Source: Escherichia coli phage phiS
Sequence record: PP449093.1
Strand: one strand, 5' to 3'
DNA: 64,000 nucleotides
Position numbers and translations under genes: made by a program. Below, in pieces: positions 3,335 to 9,581 of this stretch. Under the pieces are notes generated by a model. The model did not search any database, had not been told where the DNA came from, and was given only the letters and a program-made list of their open reading frames with translations. Each line of letters starts with the position of its first letter. Within the stretch, counting starts at the first letter, position 1.

Positions 3335-3859
3335 ATGGAATGGGAAGTTGGTAAAACTTACAAGATTGAATGCGAAGCGTCGAAAGCCGAACTGACTAAA
3401 TTTTCGTCGTCTATTAACAGATGTATTGTTGACTTGTTGGCTGGTCGCCCGTTTAGGGTAGAAGACCTTGACGATGATGGTGATGTTAGAGAAATTACTA
3501 TTATTGGTAGTAATTTCGACTCTATGACGTTAAAAGAATCCCCTATTGGCTGTTCCGGTGTGTGGTTTTGGTCGGGTGAGCGTCGTTTCTTTACCGAAGT
3601 TACTATTGAACCTAAGATTCCAGATTCGGAAGAAAAAGAAGACCTAACTTTAGAACGCCTGGGTCTGCTTATGGAAGCCTACGACATTCAGTTGATCGAT
3701 AAGATGGGGTTACATAATAGCATTGCCAAAATTACTACCCTAGAAGGTATTAAGAGCGTACTGGATGGTATGCCTAGCCGGATCGGTGCTATCCGAGAAT
3801 ACAAACAAACGCGCGACCGTATGATCCAATTAGAATCACGTATCAAAAATGAGAGATGA
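3335..3859 (+). CDS. Paralog family member 1 (WExGKTY ... RRFFxEV domain), function unknown
   Basis: Starts MEWEVGKTYKIE and contains WFWSGERRFFTEV. RBS GAGGTGA. Shares its domain with the next three genes. Confidence 0.65.
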   Translation: MEWEVGKTYKIECEASKAELTKFSSSINRCIVDLLAGRPFRVEDLDDDGDVREITIIGSNFDSMTLKESPIGCSGVWFWSGERRFFTEVTIEPKIPDSEEKEDLTLERLGLLMEAYDIQLIDKMGLHNSIAKITTLEGIKSVLDGMPSRIGAIREYKQTRDRMIQLESRIKNER

Positions 3860-3863
3860 TATT

Positions 3864-4328
3864 ATGAAATGGGAAGCTGGTAAGACCTATGCGTGGAAAG
3901 ATGTAAAAGATGCAAACCAATTTTTTAAATGGTATGATGTTGATTATTTGAAATATCTGCGATTACCGTTTAAAGTTGCGTCGGTTGATGCGAAAAAAGG
4001 ATACGTGCGGTCTGTTTATCTTCATGATGGAACTTATATGAGTTCAACCGATGTAGGTCTATCTTGTTGGTTTCTGGATCATGACCGTAGCAGATTTGAA
4101 GAAATTATTATTCCAGAAGAATCTAAATTAATTGATCTTCTCAAGTTGGCGATGGATAATTATAAAATCCGCTTTGAATGCAAATCACATGCGGCTATCG
4201 GTGCTAACGCCTTGCGTCATATCTCCAGTTTTGAAGAGTTGAAAGATTTTCTTGACAAAATGCCGGAAAGGGTGCAAGCTATACAGGAAGCAGAGAAAGC
4301 ATTAAACGAACTTGATAAAATCGGTTAA
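3864..4328 (+). CDS. Paralog family member 2
   Basis: Starts MKWEAGKTYAWKD and contains CWFLDHDRSRFEEI. C-terminal helical tail FLDKMPERVQ. Confidence 0.65.
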   Translation: MKWEAGKTYAWKDVKDANQFFKWYDVDYLKYLRLPFKVASVDAKKGYVRSVYLHDGTYMSSTDVGLSCWFLDHDRSRFEEIIIPEESKLIDLLKLAMDNYKIRFECKSHAAIGANALRHISSFEELKDFLDKMPERVQAIQEAEKALNELDKIG

Positions 4329-4340
4329 GGGGAATATATT

Positions 4341-5165
4341 ATGAAATGGGAAATTGGTAAAACTTACACCTGGAAAGACGAAAACGCTAAAACTGAGTTT
4401 ATTACTAACGGAGAAGGTGTTCTTTCTCCACTTAACAGCGATATTAGTGCAGCTATTGGTGACACGCCATTTACCATCATCGAGATCGATGGCAACGGTT
4501 GGATTAATGCAATAGAGCTAGACGGTGTTTATCATACGGCGAAAACTGCTACAGGAAAAGACATTTGGACTGCAACATATTTCTTTAGTCCATTCGATAG
4601 AAAATTCTTTCGTGAAGTTGAAGAAGTTCCCCAGAAATGGGAAGTTGGTAAAACTTATACTTGGAAAGATGCGAATGCTATGACCGACTTCTGTCATTAT
4701 GCTGAAAACGTATCTAATCTTAATTATGTTATTGCACGAGCAATAAATTATAGACCTTTTACTGTTAAAAATGTTAGTCCATGTGGGCAAATTGATGTAA
4801 TTGAAATTGATGGTAAAGACCATACTCTAATGAGCGCAACCGAAGATAGAGACCATAAAGGAACTAGCTGGTTTATTGATTCTGATAGAAAATTCTTTCG
4901 TGAAGTAGAAGAATTGGAAGTTATAACCACTGATTCTAAAATCGTTGGACAGTTGAAACGTCTGTTTAGTAGTCGTTACGGCCTGACAATGGTTAAATTT
5001 GGCGAAGCAAATGAAGGTAAAACCTTTGAACGTTTCGATGACTTCATTACAGCACTTGACAAGATGGATGAAATCATGCAAGATCGCCAGAAGATTAAAG
5101 ACCTTCAAGAAGACATTAAACGTCGTGAAGTTGAATTTTTGATTGGTAAAGAGCGAGGTTGGTAA
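4341..5165 (+). CDS. Paralog family member 3, carrying two tandem copies of the domain
   Basis: MKWEIGKTYTWKD...FDRKFFREVEEV, then a second copy KWEVGKTYTWKD...SDRKFFREVEEL. Confidence 0.7.
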   Translation: MKWEIGKTYTWKDENAKTEFITNGEGVLSPLNSDISAAIGDTPFTIIEIDGNGWINAIELDGVYHTAKTATGKDIWTATYFFSPFDRKFFREVEEVPQKWEVGKTYTWKDANAMTDFCHYAENVSNLNYVIARAINYRPFTVKNVSPCGQIDVIEIDGKDHTLMSATEDRDHKGTSWFIDSDRKFFREVEELEVITTDSKIVGQLKRLFSSRYGLTMVKFGEANEGKTFERFDDFITALDKMDEIMQDRQKIKDLQEDIKRREVEFLIGKERGW

Positions 5166-5166
5166 T

Positions 5167-5664
5167 ATGTTTGTTGATGGTAATATGTTTGTTGTTGGTA
5201 TGACCTATCAGTGGAAAAACGAGCGAGCGCGGAAAGCCTTTGCAACCAGTGTTGCAAATGATGCAATAGCAGACTTTATCGGTGACCGTACATTTAAAGT
5301 TATCGCTTTTGAAAAAATTGCGTCAGATATCGAATATGTTTCTGCGATTGAAATTGATGGAAAAACATACACCTGTCGAGATGTTGATGATGTACGGGAA
5401 TACGCGCACAACTGGTTTTTGCAATCCGAAGAACGTTATTTTAAAGTGGTGTCGTCAGAACTGACTACTGATGCAATGTTGGAACAATTTTTCAACAACT
5501 ACGAAGTTTCTGTACGTCGCTATGGCGAAGAAGAAGTGTTTAAAATCGATGATTACAATCAGTTTAAACGAGTATTCGCCACTAAGTTACAGCGTGATTT
5601 TGAACGCGAGAATCGAATCAAGGAACTGGAAGAAGAACTAGAAAGATTAAAGGCTGAGAAATGA
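5167..5664 (+). CDS. Paralog family member 4 (divergent)
   Basis: MFVDGNMFVVGMTYQWKNE...NWFLQSEERYFKVV with a coiled-coil tail. The gene starts with an 18-nt near-tandem duplication. Confidence 0.6.
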   Translation: MFVDGNMFVVGMTYQWKNERARKAFATSVANDAIADFIGDRTFKVIAFEKIASDIEYVSAIEIDGKTYTCRDVDDVREYAHNWFLQSEERYFKVVSSELTTDAMLEQFFNNYEVSVRRYGEEEVFKIDDYNQFKRVFATKLQRDFERENRIKELEEELERLKAEK

Positions 5665-5930
5665 TCGAGATATACGGCATACCGAAAGAGGCTTATCATT
5701 GTTATGGTTGTATTAGTGCAATGAAGCTACTGGATGATCTGGGTATTCCGTATACACTTAAACCAGTATTCAAGCAGGTCGGGGTTGACATTATTCCCGA
5801 CCGTGATATGATTGAAGAACTGGCGGGGAGGCTGAACTCAAAGAGCCTCCGGTTTGTATACCCCCAGATATTCATTGACAACGAGCACATTGGAGGCTAT
5901 AAAGAACTGAGGGCGATTTATGATTATTGA
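5661..5930 (+). CDS. nrdC: Glutaredoxin/thioredoxin-like protein NrdC
   Basis: 89 aa with CYGC redox motif and glutaredoxin-like C-terminus ...IGGYKEL. T4-like position near the nrd genes. Confidence 0.75.
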   Translation: MIEIYGIPKEAYHCYGCISAMKLLDDLGIPYTLKPVFKQVGVDIIPDRDMIEELAGRLNSKSLRFVYPQIFIDNEHIGGYKELRAIYDY

Positions 5931-6078
5931 GAATTTAGTTTCGGTATTCATTATTGCTTTATTTGCTATAATGGCTTTACCGTTGAAGAAGTGTAAACAC
6001 TGTAACGGAACAGGATTGCGTGGTGATGGGTGTTGCGCTCATTGTCATGGATCTGGTAAAGTAAGTATCATTAAGTAA
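5920..6078 (+). CDS. Small membrane-anchored protein with DnaJ-type CxxCxGxG zinc-finger repeats (52 aa)
   Basis: My own translation, not in the track: hydrophobic N-terminus VSVFIIALFAIMALP, then CKHCNGTGLRGDGCCAHCHGSGK. Start overlaps the nrdC stop. Confidence 0.4.
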   Translation: MIIENLVSVFIIALFAIMALPLKKCKHCNGTGLRGDGCCAHCHGSGKVSIIK

Positions 6079-6099: not shown

Positions 6100-6387
6100 A
6101 TGTTAGTACACAATGCAATCGCACACATGGTTTATTCTCGATTTGGGCGCAGGGAAGAAATCAATATTACCGACGCAGATTTAGATCTGATGCAAGTCGA
6201 AGGCCAGACATATCTGAAAAATAACGGCGTGAATATCGGTAAAGCGCGTGTGCGTGAATTGTTGGTTGAATATATTCTCTCTGAATTTGGCATTAGTGCT
6301 TTCGGTGTGAAAGAGCTTGCACCTAAGCGCGAAATTTCTGATAAAATGATCAAGAAATGCCAGAAAGCACGACGTAAGGGTTTCTAA
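6100..6387 (+). CDS. Hypothetical protein (95 aa)
   Basis: ATG at 6100 after GAGGAA. Confidence 0.5.
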   Translation: MLVHNAIAHMVYSRFGRREEINITDADLDLMQVEGQTYLKNNGVNIGKARVRELLVEYILSEFGISAFGVKELAPKREISDKMIKKCQKARRKGF

Positions 6388-7856
6388 TGAAGATTGAAAC
6401 ATTAATCGCATTGCCAGCGGCGGGGAAAACTGATGCTATACTTTCCCACGTCCTAGAGACAAAAGAAAAAGCGGTTATTGCTTCGCCATCTCGTGTTTTA
6501 AGTGAACAATCTTACAATAAGTTTAAAAGAATGGGCGGTCGTGCTGTCTTGATCGATAGCACAAGACTAAGAAGCCTTAAGACAGTGCAAGCGTCGATAA
6601 TGCAATCAGTTAAAGACGGTGCTGATGTGATATTCATTACACATACAGCGTTATCTAATATGGAACGTTCAAAAATGTTTGGTGAATATGCTCTTTACAT
6701 TGATGAAGTTCCTCAACTGGTTGAATTTAATGAGTATCCGTTTAAGTCTAATCTTGAACTTATCACGAAGCATTGCGAACCAATCGCCGACGAATCGGAA
6801 TGCCTACAGAACTTAGTTCTAAAAGACTCTGAGAAGGCCGCTATCAAAGAAAAGATAGAAAGTGCAAAGGATGGTACTGATATGATCGATTCTTCTCTTA
6901 GAGGGCTTTATGAGGCGTTATTAGAGAAGAAAATCAACGTTATGGTAAAACATAACGAAGGACACCGGAAGAATGGGTCGAAAATTGTTTTCTTGAACGA
7001 TAACAAACACGGTACGTGGGGAGACTTTAAAAAGGTTACGATAGCATGTGCAAATCTCTTTGATACATATAGTGGGAAGTATCTACGATACTATGCAAAT
7101 TGCGATTTTGTTCCGAGTGCGCTAGAATCCAGACTATATTTCAAAGAGTATAAAAATACAGATAGAGTTAATATCATCCTTATGACGGACTCCGAACGAT
7201 GGTCGCGTCACCAGTCAGAAACAAACAATACCTTTGAACGTCTTGTTGATATGGTTAAAAATGAATGTGGTGATGACTTCATTTATACCGTTAATCGGGA
7301 CCGTGAAGCGTGTACAAATGGTATTGGTGAGCGGATACCTTACGGATCTTATGGTCTTAACTCTTACATTCATCATAAAAATGTTGCTGTGATGTTCAGC
7401 TTTAACCCTCAACGATGGGAGATTGATATTTTAAAAGGTCTTGCTAATAGTTGTGATCTCCCGACAAATGAGTTTTTGAAAGCGCGTCATGTGTCTGATT
7501 ATCTGGAACCAGCATTTCAATTATGTTTGCGTTGTAACCTGAGAGACAACGAGAGCAAGGAGAATGTTAATCTATATGTTCCTGATTGGGCGTTGGTGGA
7601 TTATCTAAAAACGTTTCTACCTAATGCCAATGTAATAACAGACCGAATGATTCCGCTAGAATGTGGTGAGCGTAAAGGGCGAAAATCATTTAAAAAGATG
7701 TTCGACTTTAACGAGCAAGAGAATGCAAGATTTAACGGATTTAAGTACCGCATGAAGAAAAAAGGAAAAACTCTTGATCCGTCTGACGGTGAATCAGTAG
7801 AGATGGTTAGAGTGTGGATAACTAAGCAAAGAAAGTATAATGGCAATGGGGAATAG
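6387..7856 (+). CDS. P-loop NTPase of unknown function (489 aa)
   Basis: Walker A-like LPAAGKT near the N-terminus and Walker B-like ALYIDEV. No assignable family. Confidence 0.65.
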   Translation: MKIETLIALPAAGKTDAILSHVLETKEKAVIASPSRVLSEQSYNKFKRMGGRAVLIDSTRLRSLKTVQASIMQSVKDGADVIFITHTALSNMERSKMFGEYALYIDEVPQLVEFNEYPFKSNLELITKHCEPIADESECLQNLVLKDSEKAAIKEKIESAKDGTDMIDSSLRGLYEALLEKKINVMVKHNEGHRKNGSKIVFLNDNKHGTWGDFKKVTIACANLFDTYSGKYLRYYANCDFVPSALESRLYFKEYKNTDRVNIILMTDSERWSRHQSETNNTFERLVDMVKNECGDDFIYTVNRDREACTNGIGERIPYGSYGLNSYIHHKNVAVMFSFNPQRWEIDILKGLANSCDLPTNEFLKARHVSDYLEPAFQLCLRCNLRDNESKENVNLYVPDWALVDYLKTFLPNANVITDRMIPLECGERKGRKSFKKMFDFNEQENARFNGFKYRMKKKGKTLDPSDGESVEMVRVWITKQRKYNGNGE

Positions 7857-7896: not shown

Positions 7897-8430
7897 GTGT
7901 CTGATTATGTAAACAATAAAGAGCTTTACGAAGAAATTTGCCGTTGGAAACAACGAATTGCAGCCGAAGGTCGGCAAGTGCCAATGAGCGATCAAATTGG
8001 CCTAGCAATTATGCAAATCTCTAAAAATCTATCACGTCGTTTTAACTTTTCTGGTTATAGTCAAACATGGCGCGAAGAAATGATCGACGACGGAATCGAA
8101 GCGGCGGTCAAGGGTTTGATTAATTTTGACGAGACAAAGTATAAAAATCCTCATGCTTACATCACGCAAGCGTGCTTTAATGCTTTTGTACAGCGCATTA
8201 AAAAAGAGAGAACAGCGACAGCCGCAAAATACAAATATTTTGTGCATCATGTATATGACGAACGCGACGCTGATATGTGCCAGATTGCTGATGAGGCATT
8301 CATACAGGACATTTACGATAAAATCAACAACTACGAGGAATCGGTCAATAAACCGAAAGCGCCAAAGGTTGAAGATGTATTGACTGAGGAATTGCCTAGC
8401 CTGGACCAATTTTATGAGATTGAAAATTAA
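7897..8430 (+). CDS. 55: Late-transcription sigma factor gp55
   Basis: [29 protein letters not shown] and YVNNKEL match T4 gp55 as I recall it. GTG start after RBS GCGAGGG. Confidence 0.85.
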
Positions 8431-8945: not shown

Positions 8946-8980
8946 AAGGGAGACTCCGAAAGGGGTTTCCCTTTTTATTT
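8946..8980 (+). terminator. Intrinsic terminator
   Basis: Hairpin aagggagactcc-GAAA-ggggtttccctt followed by TTTTTATTTTT. Confidence 0.55.
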
Positions 8981-9026: not shown

Positions 9027-9581
9027 ATGACAAAATTTAAGTATTGGGATGAAGAACTACAGAGTGAAATAAGGGATCATTTTGCCCATGACGAGAACGG
9101 CATACTCTATCACAAAACTCATAGTATTCATAAGGGTAAATTTGCACCTGGCGATATTGTCAAAACTCATGTAGGGTCACAAAGAGGACATTTATCTATT
9201 TGGTTATATCTAGGAAATGGTGTAAAATATAAATTGTATGTGCATAGGGTTGTTTGGTTTCTTGAGCATGGGTATCAGGTTGCTATAATCGACCATATAG
9301 ACCAAAATGTATTAAACAATGCACCAAGAAATTTAAGAGAAGCCACTAACCAAGAAAATAAAAGAAATCAGGGAAAGATCAAGAATGTAGGCGGAAGATA
9401 TAAGGGCGCATATCGTGCAAGTTCAGCTATGAAGTCTAAACCGTGGATATGTAAAGTCAGAATAGATGGGAAAACAAAACATTTTGGATATTTCGCGACA
9501 GAAGAAGAAGCGGCAAGAAAATATGATGAGGTGGCTAAGACTCTGTATGGAGAGTTTGCCGTTTTAAATTTTCCAGAATAA
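9027..9581 (+). CDS. HNH homing endonuclease with C-terminal AP2 DNA-binding domain (copy A)
   Basis: HNH core HRVVWFLEHGY...IDHIDQN...NLREAT..EN, then AP2-like GKTKHFGYFATEEEAARKYDEVAKTLYGEFAVLNF. It sits where T4 has alpha-gt. Confidence 0.8.
   Translation: MTKFKYWDEELQSEIRDHFAHDENGILYHKTHSIHKGKFAPGDIVKTHVGSQRGHLSIWLYLGNGVKYKLYVHRVVWFLEHGYQVAIIDHIDQNVLNNAPRNLREATNQENKRNQGKIKNVGGRYKGAYRASSAMKSKPWICKVRIDGKTKHFGYFATEEEAARKYDEVAKTLYGEFAVLNFPE

Follow-up and report, generated by a model that had tools for sequence, protein, structure and literature searches.

A predicted SF2 ATPase is encoded beside gene 55 in phage phiS

Directly upstream of gene 55 in a 64,000-nucleotide stretch of DNA from Escherichia coli phage phiS (PP449093.1; the whole stretch is called the window below), an open reading frame (ORF) codes for a 489-aa protein which we predict, from its conserved motifs and a structural model, to be a superfamily 2 (SF2) nucleic-acid-dependent ATPase with an XPD/DinG-like architecture. 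We consider it fairly probable that this protein acts on DNA, as a helicase or translocase, in replication or recombination. The features by which SF2 enzymes are recognized are present: motif I, motif II, a motif VI with a glutamine and arginine fingers, and two RecA-like domains in tandem. The ORF (6387..7856, + strand) begins with ATG, ends with a stop codon at 7854-7856 and yields a protein with the N-terminus MKIETLIALPAAGKTDAIL, which is 100% identical to RB49ORF044c (AAQ15319.1), annotated as 'hypothetical protein'. By tblastn, 243 phage records carry a homologue, 237 of them at ≥80% coverage, and over its whole length the protein falls into PHROG 2467, a family of 'unknown function' (E = 8.8e-175). 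Together with the invariance of K14, D106 and E107 across 22 homologues, these matches rule out a chance ORF. The GC content of the gene (0.396) equals that of the surrounding genome.

A preliminary description, made from the letters of the window alone, had presented this ORF as a large P-loop NTPase of unknown family carrying LPAAGKT and ALYIDEV. Coordinates, length and motifs were exact, and the ORF is conserved in the 243 phage records; the P-loop assignment is borne out by the invariant Walker A and B residues, and no curated family spans the whole protein, for which NCBIfam gives no match and PHROGs a family of unknown function. That description regarded a clear match to a structural or packaging ATPase as the result that would speak against it. 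No terminase, packaging or structural ATPase was matched in Pfam, PHROGs, NCBIfam, PDB sequence searches or the fold matches listed.

The protein carries a full set of SF2-type motifs

The conserved blocks were defined from alignment A1, whose 22 homologues share 32-74% identity with the query. The following features were delineated.

6387..7856 (+): coding sequence of the 489-aa SF2 helicase-like protein (= RB49ORF044c / AAQ15319.1; ORF listing, tblastn, RB49 annotation)
6387..6716 (+): first part of RecA-like domain 1 (aa 1-110), with motifs I, Ia, Ib and II (Pfam DEAD at aa 11-130; A1; AlphaFold2 model; PDB profile matches at aa ~8-116)
6414..6431 (+): motif I / Walker A, PAAGKT (aa 10-15); P10, G13, K14 and T15 invariant (A1)
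6693..6713 (+): motif II / Walker B, LYIDEVP (aa 103-109); L103, D106, E107 and P109 invariant (A1)
6717..7022 (+): alpha/beta insertion of ~100 aa (aa 111-212), between motif II and the motif III-like strand (A1, AlphaFold2 model)
7023..7151 (+): rest of RecA-like domain 1 (aa 213-255), with the motif III-like TIACAN (A1, AlphaFold2 model)
7152..7637 (+): RecA-like domain 2 (aa 256-417), with WSR, FIYTxNxxR, HGLNxY, NVAVxFSxNP, motif VI and LxVPD (A1, AlphaFold2 model, fold matches)
7518..7544 (+): motif VI, QLCLRCNLR (aa 378-386) (A1; alignments of distant relatives)
7638..7853 (+): basic helical C-terminal tail (aa 418-489); E445 and W477 invariant (A1, AlphaFold2 model, tail comparisons)

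Beyond Walker A (LPAAGKT, aa 9-15) and Walker B (ALYIDEV, aa 101-107) the preliminary description had recognized no helicase motif. The alignment corrects this. Motif Ia (IASxSRxLSxQS) and motif Ib (VIFITHxAL) are both conserved; a motif III-like block, TIAxAN, has an invariant T218 and a nearly invariant N223; WSR, FIYTxNxxR, HGLNxY and NVAVxFSxNP form motif IV/V-like blocks, with a further block LxVPD; and the motif VI block, YLEPAFQLCxRxxxR, contains the invariant residues Q378, R382 and R386. The spacing within motif VI (Q+4/+8) is one residue longer than the canonical Q+4/+7. The columns of G13, K14, T15, D106 and E107 are invariant in distant relatives too, as are those of Q378, R382 and R386 in distant short and long relatives (alignments A4 and A5). 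Within the insertion, C130, D165, Y175, L178, D205 and W211 are invariant. In addition, Pfam DEAD matches aa 11-130 with 27.4 bits against a gathering cutoff of 26 (E 3.3e-6); DEAD, AAA_34 and Glu_syn_central were the only entries listed in the Pfam scan.

The match to Pfam DEAD, and the adjacency of the gene to gene 55, which codes for the late sigma factor, bring to mind an RNA helicase acting on phage transcripts or in late transcription. We hold this to be exceedingly unlikely. Motif II is DEVP (aa 106-109), neither DEAD nor DEAH; TIACAN stands in place of the SAT of motif III; Helicase_C is not matched, the DEAD match being confined to aa 11-130; and domain 1 has a large insertion. Moreover, the top fold matches are DNA helicases and the family includes fusions to a DNA primase-polymerase (see below).

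The predicted fold is closest to XPD and DinG

The AlphaFold2 model computed from the alignment (mean predicted local distance difference test score, pLDDT, 86.8; predicted template modeling score, pTM, 0.75) consists of two RecA-like domains, the insertion at aa 111-212 and a helical tail at aa 418-489. The preliminary description had asked for a fold comparison, and its outcome is a helicase of the two-RecA SF2 type, closest to XPD/DinG: the longest and best structural matches are XPD, DinG and CasDinG, with 313-377 aligned residues, more than against plain SF2 cores, at TM-scores of only 0.42-0.53. At the level of sequence, profiles that include distant relatives match the motif I-II region of solved SF2 helicases (E ~1e-4), namely the reverse gyrase helicase domain, DDX42, PriA, Mfd and RecG, while PDB sequence searches with the single protein and with a T4-like profile returned nothing useful. 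In the model the insertion at aa 111-212 sits at the topological position of the XPD/DinG Arch domain, to which it may be equivalent.

HsdR, Mfd, SecA and Snf2-type motors are also among the fold matches. They are in keeping with a DNA-dependent ATPase that does not unwind: a translocase, clamp or remodeler that stabilizes or tracks double-stranded DNA or strips proteins from it. There is precedent in the SF2 domain of IEE, which has all the motifs yet shows no unwinding (PMC9943667). We nevertheless judge such an activity unlikely here, as the best and longest structural matches, XPD, DinG and CasDinG, are bona fide helicases and the conserved insertion lies where XPD has its Arch domain.

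Relatives are replication modules of mobile elements

The reach of the family was determined by a profile search of 1.84 billion representative proteins, clustered at 50% identity. At E ≤ 1e-3 it comprises 1328 clusters, of which 773 remain at the stricter cutoff of E ≤ 1e-10. Among the best 150 clusters there are two main size classes, of about 450-550 aa and about 750-900 aa. The RB49 protein aligns to the long forms over residues 1-416 (BLASTP E 1e-17 to 1e-26, computed within the local sequence set). The long forms are fusions in the order helicase, archaeo-eukaryotic primase-polymerase (AEP), PriCT-like domain, and they reside in bacterial chromosomes, in the clade scanned mostly of Alphaproteobacteria. 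There is thus homology between the T4-like phage protein and the helicase-like part of AEP primase fusions carried by mobile elements. In the long-form loci inspected, a P4-type integrase gene and an AlpA/HTH_17 gene precede the long form, and cargo genes follow it; the long form occupies the position at which integrative islands carry their replication gene. In one locus the fusion is split, a 463-aa helicase being followed by a separate 258-aa AEP ORF and DUF927 genes.

The C-terminal part of the protein varies between branches. The basic tail is restricted to the T4-like clade and its nearest relatives, and in other branches a helix-turn-helix (HTH) or an AEP primase domain replaces it. A canonical HTH ends at least 9 of the 58 non-T4 short-form tails (HTH_23, best E 1.9e-6); one such short form shares its contig, of 6.4 kb, with resolvase, integrase and TIR genes. 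On the strength of the primase-fused or primase-adjacent relatives, the HTH-ended ones and those in the island slot, the helicase core is a module of mobile-element replication proteins, joined to a primase, to an HTH or to the T4-like basic tail. The idea that the tail of the RB49 protein is itself an HTH found no support, since Pfam detects no HTH there and hhalign puts the probability of a match between T4-like and HTH tails at 0.5%.

These relatives raise the question of whether the protein is an initiator-type helicase, its tail recognizing a specific phage site at which DNA is opened as by UL9, so that RB49-like phages would have a protein-initiated origin that T4 lacks. The relatives fused to primase in the replication-gene slot of integrative islands, the HTH ends of short forms and the basic, conserved tail of the RB49 protein fit such a function, as do a Herpes_ori_bp match in one relative (E 1.4e-3) and the finding that pVOG9714 is most UL9-like (PMC5862659). 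We regard it as rather unlikely all the same: the RB49 tail gave the negative HTH results above, the RB49 protein has no Herpes_ori_bp match at E ≤ 1, and no iteron-like repeats were found near the gene, where the only repeats are short, occur in two copies and could be due to chance, and where no Rfam family is matched. To our knowledge, T4-type phages start replication from R-loops or D-loops without a dedicated initiator, which also counts against it.

Agrobacterium jumbo phage Atu_ph07 (locus L013, 4995-7283) encodes a 762-aa hypothetical protein that matches 78% of a long helicase-AEP member (E = 4e-26); it is the only cultured-phage record found with a long-form match reaching beyond the helicase core. 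A scan of viral contigs with family member P0053 and a profile word-search with A4 returned little.

The gene has a fixed place beside gene 55

The window is from an RB49-like Krischvirus: over 8 kb around the gene it shares 96-97% identity with 58 Krischvirus records. The gene order is nrdD-...-nrdG-...-nrdH-ORF046c-55.2-[ORF044c]-55-a-gt.5-a-gt.4-HNH-47-46. The replication and recombination block of the phage reads dda-61-41-uvsX-43-62-44-45-46-47-55. The region had been described as the nrdC hyperplastic region; the upstream glutaredoxin gene (5661-5930), however, is nrdH in the RB49 annotation, and the locus is better named the nrdH/gene 55 region. Two elements lie immediately upstream of the gene.

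6100..6387 (+): gene 55.2 (DUF7570), upstream neighbor, its stop overlapping the helicase start (annotation, Pfam, homologue comparison)
6042..6071 (+): sigma-70-like promoter match, TTGTCA-18-TATCAT, just 5' of 55.2 (consensus match only)

The helicase ATG overlaps the stop of 55.2 (TAATG) and is preceded by a Shine-Dalgarno-like AAGGG; from this overlap, the two genes are probably translationally coupled. The promoter match is a possible early promoter for the pair. Since the product of T4 55.2 inhibits E. coli topoisomerase I (PMC4396842), the coupling is suggestive; it may equally be inherited gene order, because T4 retains 55.2 without the helicase. The 12 nt GTGTCTGATTAT are found twice without a mismatch, within the helicase gene (7491-7502) and at the gene 55 start codon (7897-7908). 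This repeat is probably meaningless, since by our estimate chance alone would yield about 0.4 such pairs in 3.5 kb.

Seven T4-like loci from several genera were inspected, and the gene lies directly 5' of gene 55 in six of them.

RB49 (L001): 5', 55.2, abutting; 3', gene 55
Proteus PM2 (L010): 5', 55.2 homologue, abutting; 3', gene 55
Cronobacter S13 (L011): 5', 55.2 homologue, abutting; 3', gene 55
Aeromonas avDM6 (L012): 5', 55.2 homologue, abutting; 3', gene 55
Aeromonas Aes508 (L003): 5', 55.2, two small ORFs between; 3', gene 55
Erwinia Cronus (L009): 5', 55.2, five small ORFs between; 3', gene 55
RB43 (L002): 5', 55.2, abutting; 3', gene 34 (rearranged)

The gene is universal in the RB49-like genus: 58 records have the helicase at ≥95% identity and 58 have gene 55 at ≥95% identity. 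With host groups taken from the first word of each organism name, the helicase was present in 77 and gene 55 in 78 Aeromonas phage records, whereas for 'Escherichia' the numbers were 53 against 611. The gene is missing from T4-type, RB69-type, Acinetobacter and cyanophage relatives (tblastn, compared with gene 55 records). A link to the unmodified cytosine of RB49, which lacks hydroxymethylcytosine, was considered and discarded, since gene 42 is present in Aeromonas phages 44RR, 31 and 25 (PMC2993671) and phage 25 has the helicase, as does Erwinia phage Cronus, beside an alpha-glucosyltransferase.

The preliminary description had suspected cargo of a variable region with a part in host takeover or anti-defense, and one may picture an ATPase that clears host defense proteins from phage DNA or destroys, for example, a signaling nucleic acid. 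The location in the early region beside variable small ORFs, the lack of the gene in T4 and most T4-like phages, and a neighbor that in T4 modulates host topoisomerase I (PMC4396842) would suit this. However, the position 5' of gene 55 in six of seven loci and the presence in every RB49-like record are not those of hyperplastic cargo and are atypical of accessory anti-defense genes, and the non-phage homologues are fused to or followed by primases in replication modules, in the slot that islands use for replication genes. Known defense and anti-defense families were searched with PADLOC and rejected, the one match being weak and off-target (13.6 bits, E = 0.0088). Nothing found here points to the suspected role, and we consider it very unlikely.

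The truly variable part of the region is the interval from nrdG to nrdH (3849-5664). It holds three consecutive apparent paralogues (3849-4328, 4341-5165 and 5143-5664, all +) that share an N-terminal W(E/K)xGKTYxWKD...F module, present twice in the middle ORF (4341-5165); none of the three has a significant Pfam match. Between nrdH and 55.2, RB49ORF046c (5920-6078, +; 52 aa) has a hydrophobic N-terminal helix, two CxxC pairs (CKHCNGTG...CAHCHGSG) and weak matches to the DnaJ-type CXXCXGXG, and may be a small membrane-anchored zinc-ribbon protein. RB49ORF040c (9027-9581, +), between a-gt.4 and gene 47, is HNH/AP2-domain endonuclease-like and probably a free-standing homing endonuclease; a strong terminator-like hairpin (8946-8973) lies just 5' of it. 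In Aes508, a 191-aa ORF (3429-4004 of L003) overlaps the helicase start; the RefSeq versions of Aes508-type phages call it 'DprA-like DNA recombination-mediator protein'. As a general feature of the neighborhood this was discarded, since Pfam lends the name no support and neither the window nor the other loci contain a homologue. Farther away, the sign of the GC skew flips near 46 kb and reverts near 56 kb, presumably reflecting a block of genes on the opposite strand.

An auxiliary DNA helicase or translocase is the favored role

Because its counterparts in mobile islands of bacteria carry a fused DNA primase, the protein most likely works on DNA in replication or recombination rather than in anti-defense or packaging. 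We infer that its substrate is DNA rather than RNA, that it truly unwinds and that it does so in phage replication or recombination; by analogy with XPD/DinG only, its polarity may be 5'->3'. As the family is a mobile-element helicase module, fused to or followed by AEP in the replication slot of islands, we propose that in RB49-like and other non-T-even relatives of T4 it would be an auxiliary, fourth helicase or translocase beside gp41, Dda and the UvsW-type enzyme. The gene is probably co-transcribed with 55.2 inside the replication and recombination block. Its product would be an ATP-hydrolyzing enzyme that binds single-stranded or branched DNA and unwinds or remodels the structures arising in replication and recombination, for instance forks, D-loops and R-loops.

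Several observations weigh against this proposal. Domain 2 is covered by no Pfam or NCBIfam model, the sequence-level match to known SF2 helicases is limited to the first ~110 residues, and XPD/DinG hallmarks are lacking (no Fe-S domain, no DEAH box). With TM-scores this low, the inferred polarity is weak. The gene is absent from T4 and from most T4-like phages (243 helicase records against at least 2000 gene 55 records), which makes a place in the core replisome unlikely. RB49 also has its own dda, 41, 61 and uvsX; the protein would therefore add to its helicases, and the idea that it stands in for Dda or gp41 was rejected. Since the phage protein has no primase domain, the function of the island proteins need not transfer to it. 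AEP-fused SF2 domains can also be non-unwinding DNA-dependent ATPases, as in IEE (PMC9943667), and the literature contains no biochemical or genetic study of any family member.

For DNA replication in phages, T4 serves as the textbook model, and it has three helicases that are well studied. Of the gene 55 phage records searched, about an eighth (243 of at least 2000) carry a fourth helicase-like gene in a fixed place beside gene 55. The carriers include every RB49-like and nearly all Aeromonas T4-like phage records, and several of the phages listed were isolated with phage therapy in view. Knowing what the protein does would close a gap in the picture of how these phages replicate and recombine their DNA. 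At the level of the family, the question is whether an XPD/DinG-shaped SF2 motor serves small mobile replicons as a replicative or initiator helicase. We think it quite unlikely that an initiator-type helicase of mobile-element origin, related to the helicase-primase replicases of islands and opening or remodeling a specific site, was kept by RB49-like, RB43-like, Aeromonas and several other T4-related phages. If true, these phages would possess a way to initiate or restart replication that depends on a protein and is absent from classical T4, and the coupling to 55.2 would tie local supercoiling or R-loop formation to helicase loading. Should the protein be merely an accessory repair helicase, the finding would be an ordinary one.

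Comparison with known systems

We treat the protein as one that would work in the manner of an XPD/DinG-type helicase and do not count it as a member of that family: XPD, Rad3 and DinG have a 4Fe-4S domain with four cysteines between motifs Ia and II, a DEAH motif II and the Pfam signatures DEAD_2 and Helicase_C_2, whereas here only ~40 residues separate motif Ia from motif Ib, C130 and C380 are the only invariant cysteines, motif II is DEVP and neither signature is matched. Residues 59-61, within the stretch between motifs Ia and Ib, have a pLDDT below 50. The Arch domain of XPD/DinG is about twice the size of the insertion, the basic C-terminal tail is extra relative to XPD/DinG, and no XPD or DinG sequence is among the PDB profile matches. 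The absence of an Fe-S domain is shared by CasDinG, a CRISPR-associated member of the XPD/DinG family. None of the T4 helicases Dda (SF1B), UvsW (SF2, RecG-like) and gp41 (DnaB-like) is orthologous to the 489-aa protein; the alignment to UvsW spans one domain only.

No paper characterizes the gene, and only two mention it, one of them at the level of the family. Nolan 2006 gave a sub-threshold DEAD/DEAH Pfam match for RB49ORF044c (E 0.069; PMC1524935). Kazlauskas 2018 (PMC5862659) predicted pVOG1685/pVOG9714 to be a novel helicase family of viruses and plasmids, comprising uncharacterized, remotely SF2-like proteins of 'some T4-like phages' homologous to AEP-fused helicase-like domains, a relationship between the T4-like protein and the AEP fusions that we found independently. 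A bare 'helicase' prediction is therefore not new. What is new here is the full motif set; a fold that resembles XPD/DinG but has no Fe-S domain; the fixed gene neighborhood and the pattern of occurrence among relatives of T4; and the helicase-AEP-PriCT-like fusion in integrative islands, together with the alternative C-terminal modules. The order of this fusion, found mostly in Alphaproteobacteria among the copies placed in genomes, is opposite to that of the fusions in Kazlauskas 2018, which are Prim+zf-CHC2+helicase with the helicase C-terminal, in Firmicutes.

Two further systems invite comparison. Herpesvirus UL9 (PF02399), to which Kazlauskas 2018 found pVOG9714 most similar (PMC5862659), is alike in that an SF2 helicase lies N-terminal to a DNA-binding or other replication module in a mobile replicon. 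UL9 has a C-terminal origin-binding domain, whereas the RB49 tail has no HTH detectable by Pfam or hhalign, and Herpes_ori_bp is a weak match in one of 21 relatives (1.4e-3). In architecture, IEE of E. coli O157 resembles the long forms in being an AEP + SF2 fusion on a mobile element, in the opposite order (AEP N-terminal) and with an SF2 domain likened to RadD. Its SF2 domain is a DNA-dependent ATPase that stabilizes the enzyme on DNA (PMC9943667), and IEE thus illustrates how an SF2 domain can serve DNA handling beside a primase-polymerase.

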